Origin: a phage
Length of the DNA: 64,000 nt
Direction: 5' to 3' (one strand)
NCBI GenBank assembly: GCA_021081985.1
Contig: GCA_021081985.1_3639.1
A program made the translations under genes and the position numbers. The number at the start of each line of letters is the position of its first letter. Position 1 is the stretch's first letter. Below, piece by piece: positions 44,570 through 56,086 of this stretch. The notes under the pieces were generated by a model. The model was not told the origin of the DNA. It was given only the letters and a program-made list of their open reading frames with translations, and made no database searches.

Positions 44570-45247
44570 ATGGCAGACTATTTAAAAGATGTAAATCATA
44601 TACACACACTGCCAGATTTCGTTGAGGGAGGTATTGATTATCTCCCTGGTGATTTTCTGAAAGAGAAAAAGAATCTTGTAAAATTTCTGACAATATACCT
44701 TGAAAGATTGAAAGCTATTGATGAGATGCTTGTAAAGCTATCAGAAGGTAGATTATTAAGGAATGCCGCAGGGCTGAATCTTGATGAGATAGGTAATCAG
44801 GTTGGTATTGAGAGGAACGGGCTTGATGATGCCACCTATAGGGCAATAATAATGATCTTGGCTGCTGGATCTGCAAGACACGGTACAAGACCAGAGTTTA
44901 TTGAAACATTAGATCAACTGTTTGGTGTTGGAAATTTTACAACTTACAAAGGGGATAATTACCGTTTTGACGTAAACGTATCGAAAAGCTGTTTCGACTT
45001 AGCAGCAGCGATAGATGAGATACTTGACCTATTACCGTTACCAACTCACCTTAGACTAACAGAGTCTGTGGGTTTGGCGTTTGGCTTTAAGAATGACAAA
45101 CATGCACTTGGATTCGGATCTGTGGCAGAGAAATCAAGAACTGGGGATGGCGGTTTAGCCCATCTAGTTTACGTACCGGATCCACCAAGAACATCGGATG
45201 ACATCCTTATTTATGTTGACAATATCTCTGTAGATGCAACAGAGTAG
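44570..45247 (+). CDS. baseplate/tail protein (I-like)
   Basis: 225 aa following the J-like gene. Confidence 0.4.
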   Translation: MADYLKDVNHIHTLPDFVEGGIDYLPGDFLKEKKNLVKFLTIYLERLKAIDEMLVKLSEGRLLRNAAGLNLDEIGNQVGIERNGLDDATYRAIIMILAAGSARHGTRPEFIETLDQLFGVGNFTTYKGDNYRFDVNVSKSCFDLAAAIDEILDLLPLPTHLRLTESVGLAFGFKNDKHALGFGSVAEKSRTGDGGLAHLVYVPDPPRTSDDILIYVDNISVDATE

Positions 45248-45259
45248 AGGAGACCACAT

Positions 45260-47323
45260 ATGGCAGAGGCTATTTTCACAGCCAGAAGAGAAGATGACTC
45301 TGTAGCTGTCAGCTTTGACTATGAAACAATACCAAACACAGCTATTGCTGGAAGAGATTATACACCCAAGGTAGGTACGGCAACAATTCCTAAAGGGGAA
45401 AAGTCTGTACAGATACCTGTGGAGATAAAACAACATCCTAAAAACTCATTACCAAGAGAATTTACCTTAAAAATGAGTAATCCGTCTTTTGGTGCAAGGC
45501 TAGACAGGCTGGCTTCCAGATGTGTTATTAGCACCAAGGAGGATATGTCTGAGTTGGGGTGGGGAACAAAAGAAGAGAAAATGTTTCTACCTAAATATTG
45601 GACAATTGATTCTCAACCCACAGAAAGTTGCTCTATAATATCTAATGGTAATATACTTACAGCTTATATGACTAATAGAACTGTAAGCGGTTTAGCAGGG
45701 GTTATTTGGAGCACAAAAGATAAGTATGATCATAAAGGGATCTCTTTTCAAGATCACACAGATCTTCGAAACGCTAAGCTGTGGTTCGATATAGAGTTGG
45801 GCGACGGAATGCCTGATTTCAATAATGAGAAATTGACCCCGACATTAACCCTTAAACTTTTAGATGGGGCGACCCATTATATCCCTCTGTACGCTTATGC
45901 TGAAAATATCAGCGAGGATTATAAAAGAGCCACAATCAAACTTGATTTTTCAAATTTAAAATCTGGCCCTGATGTGAACGTGCCAGTGGATACCTCTCAA
46001 GTGGATCAGTTTTTCTTTTCTATGATATCTGAGAAGTATGCAGAAGGAGAAGATGTTGTCCCTAAAGAAAATCAGAACCTTATGTTGAAAATAACTCTTA
46101 AAGAGCCTGATACAGGCTATACAATGATGAGAGTTAATAATTTGACAATTCCTGCACATGATGTGCGTATGTGTACATCCTATGATGACATGTATAACCT
46201 GACACCTGAACGAGTGGTGGACAACTGCTTGAAACTTGGGTACAGGGATATGATAAACCACTATAATGGTATGTCGCATTATTACGAGTTCTCTTGGGAA
46301 AGCTCCGCATGGAAACTGAACAAAGATGTCCCTGTCAATAATGCAACCCTACAATGGATGAATAACTATTTCGCACTGACACGAGCAAATGGTTATAAGG
46401 TTATCAATTCTATTAGTTTTGAGTTGATGAGCACTGTATGTCCGGCAGAATGGGTGCAGCATGATTGGAATGATGCATTGGCTGAAACAGGCTATACACC
46501 TCCTAGTTGGGTATTATCACCTAATATTAATGAGGGTATGCAATATATCCAAAGTGTGATAAATAAAATAGCAGCTACGTGCGAACAAGTTAACCAAGTT
46601 GTTATCATTCAGATAGGAGAACCTTGGTGGTGGTATAATACAGCTACTAACTTACCTTGTGTCTATGATTATACTACAAAAGTTCGTTTTAATGAAGAGA
46701 CTGGATTGTATGCTCAAGACATGGGAACAATTTATGACTTTAAGACCGGAACACCCTATGATGAGTATGTAGATTTTCTAAGACAGTGCTTAGGGGAGCG
46801 AGTGGTAAAATTCGGTGCTGATCTTAAAAAATCTTATCCTAATGCAAAAATAACACTTTTACCGTTTTTACCATCCATTATTGGTAATGGTATTATGGAA
46901 AAGATAAATTTCCCTAGTGGTAGTTATACACCTGAGAATTTTGATTTCTATTGCTCCGAGTGCTATGACTGGTTACTTCAAGGAAAAATGGAAAAATCAT
47001 TTCAGGCTATCACCATTCCGCGAGATGTCTTAAAATTTGAAGAAGATAAGATACATTATCTGGCAGGATTTGTTCCAGATGAAGGGCTAGCACCATTATA
47101 CGGATTTGACCCTAATTCTAATTATAGAGAATATCTTTGGAAAATGATTATAGGGAACATCGTTCTTAATGAGTTTAAGTTTCCAGGTATTTATCAATAC
47201 ATATGGGCGTATCCACAAGTAATGCATGATTCTATAACAGTGCACAACTCTCAATCCGCAGTCTTTCATATGGGGCATACAGCATTGAAAGGGTATTTAA
47301 AAGATACCCCACCAGAAGTTTAA
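45260..47323 (+). CDS. large tail/receptor-binding protein, possibly with an enzymatic domain
   Basis: 687 aa, Trp/Tyr-rich central region (IGEPWWWYNT); function not recognised. Confidence 0.45.
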   Translation: MAEAIFTARREDDSVAVSFDYETIPNTAIAGRDYTPKVGTATIPKGEKSVQIPVEIKQHPKNSLPREFTLKMSNPSFGARLDRLASRCVISTKEDMSELGWGTKEEKMFLPKYWTIDSQPTESCSIISNGNILTAYMTNRTVSGLAGVIWSTKDKYDHKGISFQDHTDLRNAKLWFDIELGDGMPDFNNEKLTPTLTLKLLDGATHYIPLYAYAENISEDYKRATIKLDFSNLKSGPDVNVPVDTSQVDQFFFSMISEKYAEGEDVVPKENQNLMLKITLKEPDTGYTMMRVNNLTIPAHDVRMCTSYDDMYNLTPERVVDNCLKLGYRDMINHYNGMSHYYEFSWESSAWKLNKDVPVNNATLQWMNNYFALTRANGYKVINSISFELMSTVCPAEWVQHDWNDALAETGYTPPSWVLSPNINEGMQYIQSVINKIAATCEQVNQVVIIQIGEPWWWYNTATNLPCVYDYTTKVRFNEETGLYAQDMGTIYDFKTGTPYDEYVDFLRQCLGERVVKFGADLKKSYPNAKITLLPFLPSIIGNGIMEKINFPSGSYTPENFDFYCSECYDWLLQGKMEKSFQAITIPRDVLKFEEDKIHYLAGFVPDEGLAPLYGFDPNSNYREYLWKMIIGNIVLNEFKFPGIYQYIWAYPQVMHDSITVHNSQSAVFHMGHTALKGYLKDTPPEV

Positions 47324-48975: not shown

Positions 48976-49290
48976 ATGTCTATTGACCTATTTGCTATCT
49001 TAAAAGCCGTATGGGGCGTTTTGACGTTTTTCTTAGTTGGTGTTCTGAAGTTAACATACTCAGACTATAAAAAGACACAGCAACGTCTTGATGAACTTGA
49101 TAGGGACATCATAAGAATTAAGGCAGAGATGGTCACTAAAGAGAAACTTGATGAGATTCTTGATAAAAAACTGAAAGCTGTCCGCGATGATGTTTCAGAT
49201 TTTAGAAAAGACTTAAAAGAGGATGTGAGCAGTTTGAGAGTTGATCTTATAGACCAGCTTAAAATTCTTATAGAGAGTCAAATGAAATGA
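48976..49290 (+). CDS. small membrane protein with coiled-coil
   Basis: 104 aa; N-terminal TM helix LFAILKAVWGVLTFFLVGVL then charged helix. Confidence 0.4.
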   Translation: MSIDLFAILKAVWGVLTFFLVGVLKLTYSDYKKTQQRLDELDRDIIRIKAEMVTKEKLDEILDKKLKAVRDDVSDFRKDLKEDVSSLRVDLIDQLKILIESQMK

Positions 49291-49760
49291 TAAGTTCTGC
49301 ACTGTACTTTATATGCTTTGCAGTGCTACTTCTCGATAATGATAAAGGGATCCGAGCCATGTCAGTATTTGGCATGGTTCATATCGTGGCAGAGAATATA
49401 TTATACTGGTGGTTCTGTTCCCATATCTACGCATTTGACTTGTCACTCTACCTAACCTTTTGTTGGTTCTTGGATATATCTCTGATTTTCTTTACTGCAT
49501 GTGCTTTGACAGGATGGAGAAAAAAGCTAATGCTTGCATTATCTCTTCCTGTTCTGTTTTGCCAAATTTTAGTTATGCAGTTCCCATTTATTTTACCAAG
49601 CGCATTAGGCTTCACGATAAATTCATCATATCCGACATTTATGGAAGCTCTTTTATTATGCGCCGCATACAAAAGCGGTACAATAAAAGAATTGCTTGAG
49701 ACTTCTGTTGTTGTTGGTTTCATAATTATAGCCAGAATTGTTCCTGGAGTAAATTATTGA
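49287..49760 (+). CDS. polytopic membrane protein
   Basis: 157 aa with about four hydrophobic segments. Confidence 0.45.
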   Translation: MISSALYFICFAVLLLDNDKGIRAMSVFGMVHIVAENILYWWFCSHIYAFDLSLYLTFCWFLDISLIFFTACALTGWRKKLMLALSLPVLFCQILVMQFPFILPSALGFTINSSYPTFMEALLLCAAYKSGTIKELLETSVVVGFIIIARIVPGVNY

Positions 49761-49775
49761 GGATTCTAATGTATT

Positions 49776-50039
49776 ATGCTAAAATCAATATTGAAATTTT
49801 TAAAAGATCTTGTCAGATCCCCAGTAAATCCAGAGAAGGCATCTCACACAAAATTTTGGAGTAATATCGGATTAGCTGCAATGACAGCAGTTTTTTTAGA
49901 TTGGGGTTTCAAAGGCACATTAACGGAGTGGTATATGTGGGTGTATGCCCCCACAGTAGCTGCCCCGCAGTTAATAAGTAAGTTAATATCTCTACGTTGG
50001 GGTGTAGAAGCACAACGTAGGGAAGAGTCAGACCAATAA
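49776..50039 (+). CDS. small membrane protein
   Basis: 87 aa with one hydrophobic segment. Confidence 0.35.
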   Translation: MLKSILKFLKDLVRSPVNPEKASHTKFWSNIGLAAMTAVFLDWGFKGTLTEWYMWVYAPTVAAPQLISKLISLRWGVEAQRREESDQ

Positions 50040-50049
50040 GGAGATTCTT

Positions 50050-51804
50050 GTGGCAGACATGACTAAATTTGAACAGGCGGTCGATCAGGTTGTAGAAGAT
50101 TCTGAACGCCTTCATAAAGTTGTCAATGGAGCAGCTACTGAAACTGTAGTTACAGAGGATGGCAGTCTGATACCTACAGTCAGAAAAGCATTTCTTGACA
50201 ATTTATTCTTTAAAACACCTCCACTGCCGTGGGTTGCTGGACAACAGACGACGGTATTTAATCAGTTGTATGCCTATACAGGGGAAAGAGGTGTCCAATG
50301 GTGGTATGCACCCGGTGCGACAGAGAGTTCGCCTGTAACACTACCTCCTAATCCAGTCAATAATGTTAACTGGAGATTATACAACGATTTAGAATCTATG
50401 TCTCAGCTATTTGCGCCTATTGACAGCCCTATTTTTACAGGGAACCCTCAAGCACCAACACCATCAGCGGATAGTAACAGTACAACTCTGGCAACAACAC
50501 AATTCGTTACTAGAGCTATTGCTACTGCTTTGGCTGGAATTGCGGGTGGCAACGGTACATTCGCGGATCTTACTGTAACAGGTTTAGCGAGTCTTAATAC
50601 GCTTTCTGTTGGCGGTGTGTCAACATTTAATGGGCCTGTTAATGCTGAAAATCAAACAGGAAAATTCCAGAATCTTATCTTAACAAAAGATAATTCAAGT
50701 CTATCTTTTGCCTACAGTGATGATTCTAACCCGACGTTTATAAAAACAAGGCTTGAAGCATACTCAGCGCAGACACATCAGTTACATACAGACATCATCA
50801 TAAACGGTGTGCCAGTAGCAGACAATACAACAATGTCTTTCACAGGTCTTGGTAATAATACCTTCGACTATGTTTACATTACAGGTAACTCTAAAAAAGA
50901 CCCTTCTGAAGCTCGTCTTAAAGTCTTTGGGATGACAGAACTTGAAAACTTAAAGATCACAGGTACTGTAACAGGACTTTCTTTTTCTGTCAATGGGGAA
51001 GATATCTCGCCTAATTCTGTAACAACGGCACAAGGGGTTACTGTAGGTGGTGATTTACAAGTCAATGGTAACACCAATCTCAACAGTACAACATGTGAGA
51101 GCTTAGAAGTTACTAACAACCTTGTTGTTAATGGACAAGCCAGCCTCAAAGATTTCTCCTCTACAACTGGTAATGTCACAGGGCTATTAACTTTGGGGGA
51201 GGGATTTACTGCTACTGGCGACGGGTCTGTAGGCGGTGATCTAACTGTCAACGGAACTTCAACCCTTGGTAAGATAATATCTGATGGCGATGTGACTTTA
51301 AATAGATCTTCTGGCACAACAACAGTAAACAATTTGGTTGTTAAGGGGACTGTATCTGGTATTACGTTTGATTTGACAGGACAAAACGTAAACGTAGCAT
51401 CTCTTTCTGCTCAAAGCAGTGTAACAACAAATCAGTTATTTGTTAACGGCCAGGCACAACTTTCTTCCACCAATGTAAGTTTTCTAACTTTACAATCGGA
51501 AGAGGTTGACGATCCAACAGCAACATGGACACCAAGCGGCACATCCAACATTTATAATATCACAGTGAATAAAAATCTGACAATCGGAGCATGGCCTGAT
51601 CCACAGCAACCTTTCTCCGCTATGATTTATCTGACGCAGGATGCCACAGGTGGACACAGTGTGATTCTGGATCCTAATTATGTTGTCCTTAACAGCGAAA
51701 CTGTTAATACAGCAGCAAATTCAGTTACCATCCTTCAATTAACCTTTAACGGTGTTGAAGATGGGGTTGTTGACACCATTATTGTCCGTAGACCACAACC
51801 ATAA
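50050..51804 (+). CDS. tail fiber protein
   Basis: 584 aa; fiber motif SPIFTGNPQAPTP...LATTQFV; Thr/Gly/Asn-rich beta-repeat C-terminal half. Confidence 0.6.
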   Translation: MADMTKFEQAVDQVVEDSERLHKVVNGAATETVVTEDGSLIPTVRKAFLDNLFFKTPPLPWVAGQQTTVFNQLYAYTGERGVQWWYAPGATESSPVTLPPNPVNNVNWRLYNDLESMSQLFAPIDSPIFTGNPQAPTPSADSNSTTLATTQFVTRAIATALAGIAGGNGTFADLTVTGLASLNTLSVGGVSTFNGPVNAENQTGKFQNLILTKDNSSLSFAYSDDSNPTFIKTRLEAYSAQTHQLHTDIIINGVPVADNTTMSFTGLGNNTFDYVYITGNSKKDPSEARLKVFGMTELENLKITGTVTGLSFSVNGEDISPNSVTTAQGVTVGGDLQVNGNTNLNSTTCESLEVTNNLVVNGQASLKDFSSTTGNVTGLLTLGEGFTATGDGSVGGDLTVNGTSTLGKIISDGDVTLNRSSGTTTVNNLVVKGTVSGITFDLTGQNVNVASLSAQSSVTTNQLFVNGQAQLSSTNVSFLTLQSEEVDDPTATWTPSGTSNIYNITVNKNLTIGAWPDPQQPFSAMIYLTQDATGGHSVILDPNYVVLNSETVNTAANSVTILQLTFNGVEDGVVDTIIVRRPQP

Positions 51805-51808
51805 TATA

Positions 51809-51835
51809 AAAGGCCACAGCAGTGGCCTTTGTTTT
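51809..51835 (+). terminator. rho-independent terminator
   Basis: AGGCCAC-agca-GTGGCCT followed by TTGTTTT. Confidence 0.65.
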
Positions 51836-51845
51836 AGGAGGATTA

Positions 51846-53789
51846 ATGTATCCAATTCCTTGTTTTTATATCATAATTTCCAATAACCCTCTAGCCAACT
51901 CCATTTCCTTAACCTCCCTCGGTACGTGTCTTAAAGGAGGCAAAGCACAATTAATATGGTCTGTTGTGCCGGAAGGTGCAGACTTGCATGATATAACATT
52001 TACACCAGACAAACCGACGATTGTATCTGTTGATCCTACGGGGCTAGTATCTTTTCTTGAAGATGGTGATTTTATCATTACAATGTCTGCAAAGACTGGC
52101 AAAGGAGACGAAGAAAAGACCTTAACAGCGCAAATCAATGGTCATATCGATACACTACGCATTGATGTTGATCCTATAGGCAGCAGAAGCATTAATGATA
52201 GATTCTGGTTTGTCTACAAAGGCGACCCGTCTTTTGACCCAAGCAATCCGAATCCGAATATGATTGGCTTTAACATCTCTCCAGCAGAAGTTATGGAGGA
52301 GGATGACTTTTATGTCACCGCAGTTTCTGAAACACCTGATATATTAAGTCTGGCTCCTAGTGGTATCATCACATGTGTTAGTAAAGGTGTTGGGCATTGT
52401 GGTATGAAAGGAACCTATAAGGATGTGACAGTAACGACACTTACCGATGTATATGTAGATATAGCACCACAACTTATAAATCCGACTGCTGTAGCCAACA
52501 GTTATGGTGACGTTAAGATAGCGTGGGATGTTCAATTTCCCTCCTTGGATGATATTTATACCGTAGAGGTTTATGATTCTGAAGGGATGGAGGTTGTGTG
52601 GAGTAAGAAAACCAAAGACACATTCGTATTCTTTGATGTTACAGAATCAGTGCCTATCTTTGGATTTGCCCCTACATATCTTAAAGTGGTCATCAAAGGA
52701 TCAGATCCAGAAACACAACCTATATCTTTTAATAATAATGTAACTGTTGACGACTCTTTTGTTAAAGAGGTGCTTGTTTTTGCTGGCGGTGATAACGCAG
52801 CAGCACATTTTAACTCTTTTTCTGGTAGGGATAAAACAAGCCAAAGTGCAACCGTAGCACGTAATGAGTATGCTCTTAGCAAAGGGTTTTACCCAGCAGA
52901 AGTATTACCAATCAATGCCGCATTCATTACATCTTGTGCAGAAGCACAGGCAAACTCCTCTACAGGGTTAGCCACAAATTACTGGTATGACGTTAGTTCC
53001 TCCACAGCAGGTCCGTGTCTAACACAATTCCTTGCGAAGGTTAAACCTTATAAGGATAAAATTAAGGCTGTTTTCTGGTCGTTAGGGGAACAAGATGCCA
53101 TGGTAGCAGCAGCAAAACAGGAGGGGAAACATAGCGATGATGCTCGTTTTCAGACTGCTATGACCGCCATCTTTGAAAATATCCGATCTGTTATCACAAA
53201 TCCTGAAGCTAAGATTGTATTGCAGACACTTGGTAGATGCTTTGATGATAGTGTGGAAGTAGGTGGTGTTGAGTGGTATCGTTATAGAAGTATTCAACAA
53301 CAGTTAGTGGTAGATTCCGGGGGTGAGGTTATAATTGGCTCTTGGGTTGATGGTGCTGAACACTATGGCAATTATGTTGTTTCAGGGGCAGGTGATGGTT
53401 TAAGAATACAGTACCGACCAACAATTTATAAGAATGCCGCAGTATCCTTGGCTAACATGGAGGACTTGTCGAACACACCTCCTGTTTGGGTGGATATGAA
53501 AGTTCCCATGGGAGGAAAGGCAGTAAGGCAAGCAAACCAGGATATTCTTTTATCATGGGATACCAGAGGCTACAACAAGTTCTTTCTTGTTAACTTTGAT
53601 GTCCTGACAGGGGCTGTTATATCCCAACAAACATTGACCACCAATAGTTACACATTTACCTACGCAGATCAAGTAAAACAATACGGGTATGCTGCGGGTA
53701 CAGTTTTGTTTGGTGTTGCATATGTTCAAACAACCAGTAAAGGTGATATTACATCTCCGTTGGCGAAATTCAGTATCAATGTAGCGTGA
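51846..53789 (+). CDS. tail-associated protein, possible C-terminal esterase-like domain
   Basis: ORF track 51822..53789; start moved to ATG after RBS AGGAGG. C-terminal half has VFAGGDN...DGAEHY, loosely SGNH-esterase-like. Confidence 0.45.
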   Translation: MYPIPCFYIIISNNPLANSISLTSLGTCLKGGKAQLIWSVVPEGADLHDITFTPDKPTIVSVDPTGLVSFLEDGDFIITMSAKTGKGDEEKTLTAQINGHIDTLRIDVDPIGSRSINDRFWFVYKGDPSFDPSNPNPNMIGFNISPAEVMEEDDFYVTAVSETPDILSLAPSGIITCVSKGVGHCGMKGTYKDVTVTTLTDVYVDIAPQLINPTAVANSYGDVKIAWDVQFPSLDDIYTVEVYDSEGMEVVWSKKTKDTFVFFDVTESVPIFGFAPTYLKVVIKGSDPETQPISFNNNVTVDDSFVKEVLVFAGGDNAAAHFNSFSGRDKTSQSATVARNEYALSKGFYPAEVLPINAAFITSCAEAQANSSTGLATNYWYDVSSSTAGPCLTQFLAKVKPYKDKIKAVFWSLGEQDAMVAAAKQEGKHSDDARFQTAMTAIFENIRSVITNPEAKIVLQTLGRCFDDSVEVGGVEWYRYRSIQQQLVVDSGGEVIIGSWVDGAEHYGNYVVSGAGDGLRIQYRPTIYKNAAVSLANMEDLSNTPPVWVDMKVPMGGKAVRQANQDILLSWDTRGYNKFFLVNFDVLTGAVISQQTLTTNSYTFTYADQVKQYGYAAGTVLFGVAYVQTTSKGDITSPLAKFSINVA

Positions 53790-53796
53790 TAGCAAA

Positions 53797-53828
53797 ATAA
53801 AAGGGAGCTAAAAGCTCCCTTTTATTCT
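53797..53828. terminator. bidirectional terminator between convergent genes
   Basis: AAGGGAGC-taaa-GCTCCCTT with T/A runs on both sides. Confidence 0.7.
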
Positions 53829-54214
53829 AACTCACCTTTATAGGTGTATGGAATGTTATAATGGCTACATATTTGGTCAAGGATTTTTATAAGCAAATAC
53901 CTGTGGCAAAAGCCTCCTCCTTTACAATAACATGCAATTGCAAGAGGATCTTTAGTATTACAGAAATCAACAAACCACTGCTTATCTCTAATATATCTTT
54001 CCCTCATAATAGAGAGATACTCTTTTTCATATTGTTCTTTACCGATTGTCCCCTCTTTGTATGCCCACAAAAGATTTTTTGTTGGTGCTAACCATCTTTC
54101 ACCACAATGGTGTACTCCACTTTTTAATGTACAGTCAATAATCTGAATGTCTTGTTTCTTTGCAAGCCTCCATTTAGAGAGTTGCATTGTGTATATTTCC
54201 ATTAGAATACTCAC
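53822..54214 (-). CDS. DUF488 (YeaO)-like protein
   Basis: 130 aa; recalled resemblance to YeaO-family small proteins. Confidence 0.4.
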   Translation of the reverse strand: MSILMEIYTMQLSKWRLAKKQDIQIIDCTLKSGVHHCGERWLAPTKNLLWAYKEGTIGKEQYEKEYLSIMRERYIRDKQWFVDFCNTKDPLAIACYCKGGGFCHRYLLIKILDQICSHYNIPYTYKGELE

Positions 54215-54221
54215 TTTAACA

Positions 54222-54255
54222 GCAAATAAAAATGGAGGGTTCCACCCTCCATTTT
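54222..54255 (-). terminator. rho-independent terminator (minus strand)
   Basis: AATGGAGGGT-gga-ACCCTCCATT followed by TTTTATTT on the minus strand. Confidence 0.65.
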
Positions 54256-54264
54256 GTGTATTAA

Positions 54265-55482
54265 TTAAAGAATGTATACCCGATGTTTACCGTACTGTAG
54301 ACCTACAGGACTGAAAGGGATATCTTCATCATAGTCAAATTCAGGTGCTGGCGATTCCATATTCGGAATATCGCTATTGGAACTGTTCAAAGGTTCCTTA
54401 GCATGCTGTTTGTTCTTTTGTTGTGTCTTCCCATCACCTTTAGATAAGAACTCGTAAAACGGCTCTGATAGTGTTAGGTAAACATCTTTGGCGGCATTCA
54501 GAATACTATCTTCTGTTAGTTTATCGGTTTGATGATACAAAGCACAAGCCACTAAGATAGCATTACCCGCACTAGCGCCCACCGCATTAGATTCCACATC
54601 TTTTCCTGTTTTCTCTGCCACAAAAGCCTTCATAGCTACTGTAGCGTTGTGAACCATTTTCGCAGCAGAGAGACGATCCTCAATCTTAAAACCAGCTTTA
54701 ATGAGTTCCTTCACACCGTTGATGCCGTGCCCACAAGCAACACCTAAAGCATCATAACCACCAGATGACTTCTTAGTCTGCCCAGCAGGACCGTAGGCTT
54801 TAAACCCACCTAAGACCGTACCATCACTTAGGTTAACAATCGCAGTGACACGACCACCTACTACAACTTGCGACAATTGCTCATCTGTGAGGACAAGGTT
54901 TCCTTGACCATTCTTCTCATCATTAACTGTCACCACATTGCCAACGATTGCAGCAATCTCACCATAAATTTTAGTGCCTTTAACTTGGGCATTTGCAGGT
55001 GATTGGGTCGAAGATTGCTGGCGAGGAGCACTTTGACCAACTTTACTTTCATCGAGAATGCTGAAGGTCTTTCCGTTTAAAGTGCCGTTTGTATACGTTT
55101 TATCCCCACTCTTAGTAATTTTGAGAGGGAAAGAAACAACCATCCCCGCCACAATATCTTTGTATCCAGAATCAAATTTCACCTGAATTTTGTCTGCATG
55201 GCTTGGGTGAAGTTTTTTCTCACCCATAGAAATCCACTCACCTTGGCTCTGTGGGTCAATAACGTTGTTATTATCGTCAACCTCTTGCATCAGGAAACTG
55301 ATTGAGTGCGTAGCCTCAATAACTTTAGCTGGTTGCCCTTTGCGAGCAGGGATATGGGTACGCCGGATACCATCTGCGTCAGCGTTTTTCACTGGACGAA
55401 TATTAACATACTTGATAAAACCTTTCGCAAAATAATCAACTTTTCCGTTGATTGGATTCTTAAATTCATTGATTACGCTCAT
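54265..55482 (-). CDS. hypothetical protein
   Basis: 405 aa; Gly/Val-rich core; acidic EFDYDEDIPF motif close to, but not at, the C-terminus. Confidence 0.5.
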   Translation of the reverse strand: MSVINEFKNPINGKVDYFAKGFIKYVNIRPVKNADADGIRRTHIPARKGQPAKVIEATHSISFLMQEVDDNNNVIDPQSQGEWISMGEKKLHPSHADKIQVKFDSGYKDIVAGMVVSFPLKITKSGDKTYTNGTLNGKTFSILDESKVGQSAPRQQSSTQSPANAQVKGTKIYGEIAAIVGNVVTVNDEKNGQGNLVLTDEQLSQVVVGGRVTAIVNLSDGTVLGGFKAYGPAGQTKKSSGGYDALGVACGHGINGVKELIKAGFKIEDRLSAAKMVHNATVAMKAFVAEKTGKDVESNAVGASAGNAILVACALYHQTDKLTEDSILNAAKDVYLTLSEPFYEFLSKGDGKTQQKNKQHAKEPLNSSNSDIPNMESPAPEFDYDEDIPFSPVGLQYGKHRVYIL

Positions 55483-55496
55483 TCTCTCTCCTTTTA

Positions 55497-55838
55497 TTAC
55501 TTAACGCCTTCAGCAGTTTCGTTTCCAACGCTCAACATTTTATCTACCACTAAATCTTCAACTTGATTTAGCAGGTTCAATGCAAAAGTGGAAGCAGTAT
55601 TTAATTTCAACAAATTGTTGCGGTGTCCTCGGATCCATGAAATTGCATCCTCTACCGTTTTATAGTTACCACTTTGGATGAGCTTCAGCATCTCTTCTCG
55701 AATTTCTTTCGACCCGATTACTGTTCCCATCTGGTGACTGGCGCTGGACAAGTATACGATTGTTCCAAACTGCCCTTCATCAAGATCAAGAAAACGGATA
55801 TCCTCTTTATTTTCAGGTGTTTGTTTTTCTTTAGGCAT
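55497..55838 (-). CDS. hypothetical protein
   Basis: 113 aa. Confidence 0.4.
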   Translation of the reverse strand: MPKEKQTPENKEDIRFLDLDEGQFGTIVYLSSASHQMGTVIGSKEIREEMLKLIQSGNYKTVEDAISWIRGHRNNLLKLNTASTFALNLLNQVEDLVVDKMLSVGNETAEGVK

Positions 55839-55894
55839 GTCTATTCCTTACAAGGTTGTTGAGTATCACATCTTACACTATGCATGCATGTATG

Positions 55895-56086
55895 TCAAGA
55901 TGATTTTTTGTCTTTTTCTTGGAGAAAAGACAGGACAAATGCTGTAACCGCTATAATCAAAGGGGGCATGACAACAATTGCCCATGGTAGGTATAGAGGG
56001 GCAAGAACTAACCACCAAGACCAGTCTATAATCTCACACAACTTCAACGCTATGAAGAGAATGCTTAACGCAGATAAAAATCTCAT
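55895..56086 (-). CDS. hypothetical small membrane protein
   Basis: 63 aa with two hydrophobic segments. Confidence 0.3.
   Translation of the reverse strand: MRFLSALSILFIALKLCEIIDWSWWLVLAPLYLPWAIVVMPPLIIAVTAFVLSFLQEKDKKSS

Follow-up and report, generated by a model that had tools for sequence, protein, structure and literature searches.

Gene and genomic setting

The locus analysed here lies in a 64,000-nucleotide stretch of phage DNA (contig GCA_021081985.1_3639.1, hereafter the window) and carries a gene for a protein of 647 aa, preceded by a small hairpin and a ribosome binding site (Table 1). The window is a segment of a tailed-phage genome, and its positions 49000-56000 show 97% identity to Escherichia phage Av-05 (Avunavirus, Vequintavirinae) and 94% to four related coliphages. 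The predicted product is matched end to end by PHROG 32204 ('tail protein'). The initial annotation had started the gene at ATG 51846, and this start holds: AGGAGG is found upstream, and the orthologue Av05_00106 of Av-05 is annotated from the same codon. GTG 51822, at which the mechanically called ORF begins, was rejected, since it is part of the 3' arm of the hairpin and lacks a ribosome binding site. Given this location of the GTG and the AGGAGG ahead of the ATG, ATG 51846 is the correct start.

Table 1. Positions of genes, domains and motifs in the window
Feature	Position	Strand	Basis or remark
DUF2612 protein	44570-45247		Pfam
ORF, 687 aa, 'hypothetical protein', Calx-beta + NCTSP_N + complete NCTSP TIM barrel; probable partner	45260..47323	+	Pfam
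Hairpin, perfect 9-bp stem, AAAGGCCAC-AGCA-GTGGCCTTT	51809..51830	.	Between tail-fibre stop (51804) and the 647-aa gene
Ribosome binding site AGGAGG	51836..51841	+	4 nt 5' of ATG 51846
CDS, predicted tail accessory protein, 647 aa	51846..53789	+	Orthologue of Av-05 Av05_00106; PHROG 32204
Ig-like domain 1 (Big_2), aa 17-103	51894..52154	+	Pfam, AF2; dN/dS 0.03-0.05
Ig-like domain 2, aa 104-205	52155..52460	+	Weak Pfam Big-like match; AF2
Beta-sandwich domain 3, aa 207-301	52464..52748	+	AF2; dN/dS 2.5 vs Av-05
SASA-like SGNH-fold alpha/beta domain, aa 305-540, catalytic residues replaced	52758..53465	+	
Block I equivalent FAGGDN, aa 312-317	52779..52796	+	Consensus FAGQSN; Gln315 -> Gly, nucleophile Ser316 -> Asp
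Ile361, probable block II Gly column	52926..52928	+	Gly in 83% of intact-motif relatives
Block III equivalent WSLGEQD, aa 411-417	53076..53096	+	Consensus WAQGExD; QGE Gln -> Leu413; G414, E415, D417 kept
DGAEHY, aa 502-507, non-catalytic loop insertion	53349..53366	+	His506 not conserved
Block V equivalent DGLRIQY	53394..53414	+	Catalytic His -> Gln522 (CAG); His (CAC) in Av-05
C-terminal FN3-like beta-sandwich, aa 555-647	53508..53786	+	Homology, AF2

The gene is the final plus-strand gene of the structural module, following the baseplate and tail-fibre genes, and is itself followed by convergent minus-strand genes. The hairpin is directly succeeded on the plus strand by GTTTTAGGAGG, and therefore overlaps the run-up to the ribosome binding site. 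A terminator scan picked it out as a putative terminator for the minus strand alone; neither the promoter nor the terminator scan returned more sites than were obtained with shuffled sequence. The upstream neighbour is a tail-fibre gene (50050-51804, plus strand, 584 aa) that matches the 'putative tail fiber protein' chain in the baseplate of phiTE (Certrevirus; 9cuy/9mjn) with an E-value of 3e-84, and a structural template is therefore available for this fibre. Downstream, ORF 53822-54214 on the minus strand encodes a DUF488-N3a protein of 130 aa (PF22751, E 2e-7; PHROG 2450). Window positions 53832-54270 (~440 bp) had zero DNA matches in 50,697 phage records, Av-05 and TH18 included, and as judged by this comparison form a strain-specific insertion at the point where the convergent modules meet, immediately 3' of the 647-aa gene.

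Domain layout and selection

The full-length AlphaFold2 (AF2) model (pLDDT 85, pTM 0.71) consists of a disordered N-terminus, three beta-sandwiches, an alpha/beta domain and a C-terminal FN3-like sandwich. The beta-rich, Ig-like character that had been proposed for the N-terminal half is borne out by the three sandwiches and by Pfam: Big_2 (PF02368) matches aa 27-92 with 22.8 bits, exactly the cutoff of 22.8, and this segment folds as a beta-sandwich in the model, which places it in the family, and a weak Big-like match covers the second domain. BFVD matches to the Ig region were Ig-domain phage proteins. When the full-length model was used as query BFVD yielded mostly generic Ig-domain proteins, the only useful matches being orthologues and PVP-SE1 gp40, which shares the N-terminal Ig-like region only.

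Ig-like domain 1 is the most conserved part of the protein and is common to PVP-SE1 gp40 and phi92 gp152. Domain 3 is the most variable part; it differs from Av-05 by 22 non-synonymous versus 2.7 synonymous differences, which are small counts, and its variability may be due to diversifying selection or else to recombination over a short patch. The SGNH-like domain has a dN/dS of 0.18-0.31 with respect to Av-05 and TH18. Judged by these ratios the domain as a whole is under purifying selection rather than decaying, and it is therefore still functional as a domain. The conservation of Ig-like domain 1, the fact that gp40 shares the Ig part only, and the additional ~290 aa at the C-terminus of most phAPEC8-like orthologues, absent here, suggest that the N-terminal Ig pair may serve as anchor and that the C-terminus would form a distal, exchangeable end.

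An SGNH fold with replaced catalytic residues

A profile and structure search of the C-terminal part had been put forward as a check of the suspected esterase domain, and such searches do predict an SGNH fold. The modelled domain is a three-layer alpha/beta/alpha structure with a parallel sheet, in which block I is found at the end of strand 1 and block V precedes the C-terminal helix. By itself the 647-aa protein scores only 15.0 bits (full length) or 17.2 bits (domain) against the Pfam SASA profile (PF03629; E 0.004-0.02), and thus does not reach the gathering score of 24.8 bits. When 1.84 billion representative proteins were searched exhaustively by HMMER, the query aa 290-647 retrieved 73 relatives, from which the deeper family alignment was built; a separate profile query gave just three proteins. 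Fourteen of the 17 members of the domain alignment match Pfam SASA (E up to 0.01; best 4.6e-14). The profile of these 17 sequences detects N4 gp65 with an E-value of 5e-64, in two domains, and matches the solved SASA/SGNH esterases 2apj, 1zmb, 4k3u and 9h4u as well; NanS (3pt5) is matched weakly, with E 0.68 only. A direct phmmer comparison of the 647-aa protein with N4 gp65 gave an E-value of 4.7e-21. On the strength of these profile matches the C-terminal half is predicted to carry a genuine SGNH/SASA fold that is related to part of N4 gp65.

SASA proteins are defined by a catalytic Ser in block I with an adjacent Gln, by (H)QGE in block III and by a His in block V; the Gln beside the Ser forms an 'inverted' oxyanion hole and is positioned by (H)QGE, and substitution of Gln/QGE residues abrogates activity (PMC9487903). 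Most remote relatives in our dataset indeed show F[AG]GQSN, WAQGExD and a block V of the form ..(I/V)H(Y/F). Three SGNH-like motifs had been reported for the 647-aa protein and all three are present where they had been placed. FAGGDN and WSLGEQD align with SASA blocks I and III in both the family and the PDB-profile alignments, by which their resemblance to SASA blocks is taken to be more than chance. DGAEHY was rejected as block V: it belongs to an insertion that minimal SASA members lack, about 15 aa upstream of block V, and its His is replaced by N, D or R in relatives that are 42-95% identical. Its likeness to an SGNH block is, by this alignment, due to chance. The actual block V equivalent is DGLRIQY, with which the stretch DGVHF of 4k3u aligns.

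As reference we used the 23 relatives with an intact Q-S...H, which have 30 columns with a conservation of at least 80%. The 647-aa protein retains 24 of these. The six that are lost correspond to Q315G, S316D, G361I, Q413L, L455A and H522Q, hence the losses are almost entirely at catalytic and oxyanion positions. The column of Ile361 is probably block II, given its place after strand 2 in the model. Retained residues include G314, N317, H321, W380, G414, E415, D417, Q460, Q484 and Y528, which lie around the former active site, close to a putative pocket. Position 522 furthermore varies among proteins that are more than 90% identical: it is Gln (CAG) here and in TH18, and His in Av-05 (CAC) and in three metagenomic relatives (P0002, P0003 and P0004). 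Such a His/Gln polymorphism is not expected of a catalytic base.

Compared with the SASA/CE6 sialate- and xylan-O-acetylesterases (PF03629), such as E. coli NanS (3pt5), At4g34215 (2apj) and CAC0529 (1zmb), the protein thus has Asp for Ser, Gly for the oxyanion Gln, Leu for the Gln of QGE and Gln for His, by which it lacks all of catalytic Ser, oxyanion Gln, (H)QGE and block V His. It also differs from these enzymes in some 20 aa that are inserted ahead of block V, in its multi-domain phage tail setting and in its sub-threshold Pfam score. The domain has an intact fold and has lost its catalytic residues, and is therefore best described as a pseudo-esterase. The initial suggestion of a receptor-modifying esterase on the virion is accordingly correct as regards the fold and, with the required residues replaced, unlikely as regards the enzyme.

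Avunavirus and the phi92/phAPEC8-like phages, two lineages with only 42-49% identity to each other, have Asp316 without exception. The phi92/phAPEC8-like orthologues have GQDN, QGE and RIHY, and since they keep QGE and His beside GQDN, a comparison of the two lineages suggests that Ser was replaced by Asp first and that the other catalytic positions decayed subsequently in the Avunavirus lineage. Asp is a good helix-capping residue, and in the AF2 model Asp316 is found at the N-terminus of helix 316-320. A role as helix N-cap would, according to the model, suffice to explain its retention, albeit this is not proven; its invariance could also point to a functional role, non-canonical chemistry included. 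Catalytic residues have been lost repeatedly across the family (P0041, P0043, P0052, P0056 and P0071), in which inactivation seems frequent. The relatives from the representative search that bear on inactivation are P0041, P0043, P0052, P0056, P0063, P0071, P0073 and P0080. The second domain of many N4-like sheath proteins has 'GINSL'.

Orthologues, N4 sheath proteins and possible roles

Orthologues in Justusliebigvirus and Phapecoctavirus are represented by a 939-aa 'BIG2 domain-containing protein' of phage alia and by gp152 plus gp153 of phi92. They have in common with the 647-aa protein the N-terminus MYPIP..., the domain order, the position in the locus and the Asp at the nucleophile site (GQDN); oxyanion Gln, QGE and His, which the 647-aa protein lacks, are still present in the alia/phi92-type orthologues. 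In phi92 (L003, 8408-10070) two ORFs are annotated, gp152 with the Ig-like N-terminal part and gp153, which sets in halfway through the SASA domain and comprises the remainder. This orthologue lacks the third beta-sandwich as well as the ~290-aa C-terminal extension and has its block I region in a different frame, the split being the result of a deletion, a frameshift or a sequencing error. The split suggests that phi92 can do without an intact copy, under laboratory conditions at any rate. Database labels in the family range from 'tail protein' and 'lateral tail fiber protein' to 'tail carbohydrate esterase' and 'non-contractile tail sheath'. We found no experimental account of phi92 gp152/gp153 or of the phAPEC8-like or Avunavirus orthologues in the literature, nor a description of SGNH domains in gp65; a 2026 structure paper on phi92 leaves gp152 and gp153 without assignment.

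The sole solved close relative is N4 gp65 (9lc0, 9yf4), which is the major non-contractile sheath subunit as well as the NfrA-binding receptor-binding protein, comprises ten domains and pairs with gp64. Residues ~281-625 of the 647-aa protein align to gp65 706-1057, which corresponds to the second SASA-like and the first FN3-like domain, and the FN3-like module recurs in gp65 (residues 1082-1154 and 1202-1262) and relatives. Both proteins hence have a distal SASA-like domain followed by one or more FN3-like repeats. They differ in that the 647-aa protein has, by Pfam, neither NCTSP_N (PF23844) nor the NCTSP TIM barrel (PF23845) and carries the Ig-like region in place of the NCTSP segment, and in that it has one SASA-like domain with one FN3-like domain after it where gp65 has two SASA-like and several FN3-like domains. 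Moreover, its virus is a contractile-tailed myophage whereas N4 is a podophage. The second SASA-like domain of gp65 is without any catalytic motif (VGINQF, EANPWET and WIYY) and has lost the conserved residues near the pocket, many of which are kept in the 647-aa protein.

The NCTSP part is found elsewhere in the window. ORF 45260-47323 matches PF23844 (2e-18) and PF23845 (7e-76) and is homologous to N4 gp64 (E 3e-33) and, over a short stretch, to the N-terminal part of gp65 (E 3e-8). Each partner of the N4 sheath heterodimer thus has a homologue in the window, the two being encoded by distinct genes at a distance of about 4.5 kb. According to Pfam P0040, P0042 and P0048 combine NCTSP_N, a complete NCTSP TIM barrel and a SASA-like domain with GQSN in a single chain, P0038 is further extended by DUF2612 at the N-terminus and by another SASA-like domain, and P0041 and P0045 have the gp65 layout. 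Parts that are fused in P0038-type proteins are thus separate genes in the window, with the distal SASA-like and FN3 module placed on an Ig-like N-terminus. By analogy with these fusion proteins ORF 45260-47323 is a probable partner of the 647-aa protein. The BASEL study described gp64 as homologous to the 'lateral tail fibre' protein of Vequintavirinae, wecB dependence being common to both; the gp65-type module identified here extends, at the level of homology, this link.

Taken together, the 647-aa protein is probably a tail accessory protein of Avunavirus with a pseudo-esterase domain that binds glycans or acts as scaffold without hydrolysis, a reading in which we place reasonable, not strong, confidence. 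It would be a beads-on-a-string protein at the periphery of the tail or baseplate of the myophage, attached by the conserved Ig-like pair as virion-proximal anchor, and continuing through the variable beta-sandwich into a distal module, in which a single SASA-type SGNH-fold domain is followed by one FN3-like domain. This module is homologous to the second SASA-like plus FN3 part of gp65, and in other phages it extends baseplate-linked NCTSP proteins at their C-terminus. The remnant putative pocket, beside Ig- and FN3-like domains of the adhesion type, may act as lectin-like glycan binder or as scaffold, with the esterase fold retained and Ser, Gln, the probable block II Gly, the Gln of QGE and the His replaced. 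The tail periphery might thereby be helped to hold surface polysaccharide rather than deacetylate it. The PHROG tail category, the place at the end of the tail-fibre locus, the same position in phi92 and the NCTSP fusion proteins would all fit a role in the tail. A protein that is neither part of the virion nor structural but carries Ig domains and is encoded last in the tail module by mere happenstance is barely credible: the literature gave no proteomic or structural detection in Avunavirus or phi92-like virions and a hairpin separates the gene from the tail-fibre gene, but the C-terminal half is homologous to a virion protein of N4, the module recurs as a fusion part of baseplate-linked NCTSP proteins, and position and orientation are the same in the phi92-like phages, with the PHROG category pointing to the tail as well.

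Tail SGNH esterases do exist. The G7C gp63.1 fibre (4qnl), the Moo19 and B2 tailspikes and the Possum tail fibre are generally described as GDSL-type enzymes whose triads are intact and whose deacetylase activity has been demonstrated, and form trimeric fibres or spikes. The 647-aa protein, by contrast, is SASA-type and catalytically degenerate, and its single-chain AF2 model contains Ig/FN3-like and alpha/beta domains only and no fibre or spike domain. That it is nevertheless an active virion O-acetylesterase that modifies the receptor, with Asp316 as unconventional nucleophile or general base, appears very unlikely. The genuine SGNH/SASA fold, the invariance of Asp316 in both lineages and the many phage-tail relatives that keep GQSN, QGE and His and are plausibly active speak for it, but five catalytic or oxyanion positions are replaced together, the block V position is polymorphic among near-identical phages, and the protein alone scores 15-17 bits where Pfam SASA requires 24.8. 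We know of no SGNH enzyme described with an Asp nucleophile. In further favour of an enzyme, one GenBank record names a phi92-like orthologue 'tail carbohydrate esterase', the BASEL paper gives G7C gp63.1 as an O-antigen deacetylase, and the Moo19 and B2 tailspikes are named in a cited title as additional tail SGNH esterases.

A purely structural spacer that binds no ligand, similar to the second SASA-like domain of N4 gp65, is unlikely though it deserves consideration. That gp65 domain is motif-less yet a stable part of the sheath, catalytic loss is recurrent in the family and the phi92 orthologue is interrupted. Unlike the gp65 domain, however, the 647-aa protein keeps 24 of 30 conserved columns, among them those of the residues around the former active site, which is weak evidence because folding alone could require such conservation.

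The glycan-binding or scaffolding pseudo-esterase is thus preferred; the fold label of the protein is right and the enzymatic label probably wrong for this lineage. A wrong esterase label is of consequence where depolymerases or deacetylases are sought among phage tail proteins, be it to predict host range or to engineer phages. The family was already in databases; what we add is modest and consists of the probable mislabel, the coincidental nature of DGAEHY and the gp65-type distal unit. The comparison also documents, for a single family of tail proteins, how the active site of an esterase was lost step by step, and links a tail accessory protein of myophages to C-terminal modules of the N4 receptor-binding sheath.

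A more specific proposal is that the former active site, with D316, N317, H321, E415 and D417, has been repurposed, either as lectin that would bind the ancestral acetylated sugar and leave it uncleaved, the esterase having become a domain for receptor binding, or, less likely, as an SGNH-fold enzyme with a new, Asp-based chemistry. We hold this to be rather doubtful. If true, it would mean that, with the gp64-like TIM-barrel protein as second component, Vequintavirinae-type myophages possess the receptor-binding apparatus of the N4 sheath in split form, and that it is directed at the wecB-dependent glycan to which that of N4 is directed.

As to N4 itself, the NCTSP TIM-barrel profile is divided over its two sheath genes (L002, 2302-6450 and 6483-7736): gp65 374-416 corresponds to profile positions 4-46 and gp64 109-407 to positions 60-347. 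The barrel is unsplit in ORF 45260-47323 as well as in P0038, P0040, P0042 and P0048. This division of the profile suggests that the gp64:gp65 heterodimer of N4 may complete one TIM barrel across two chains.
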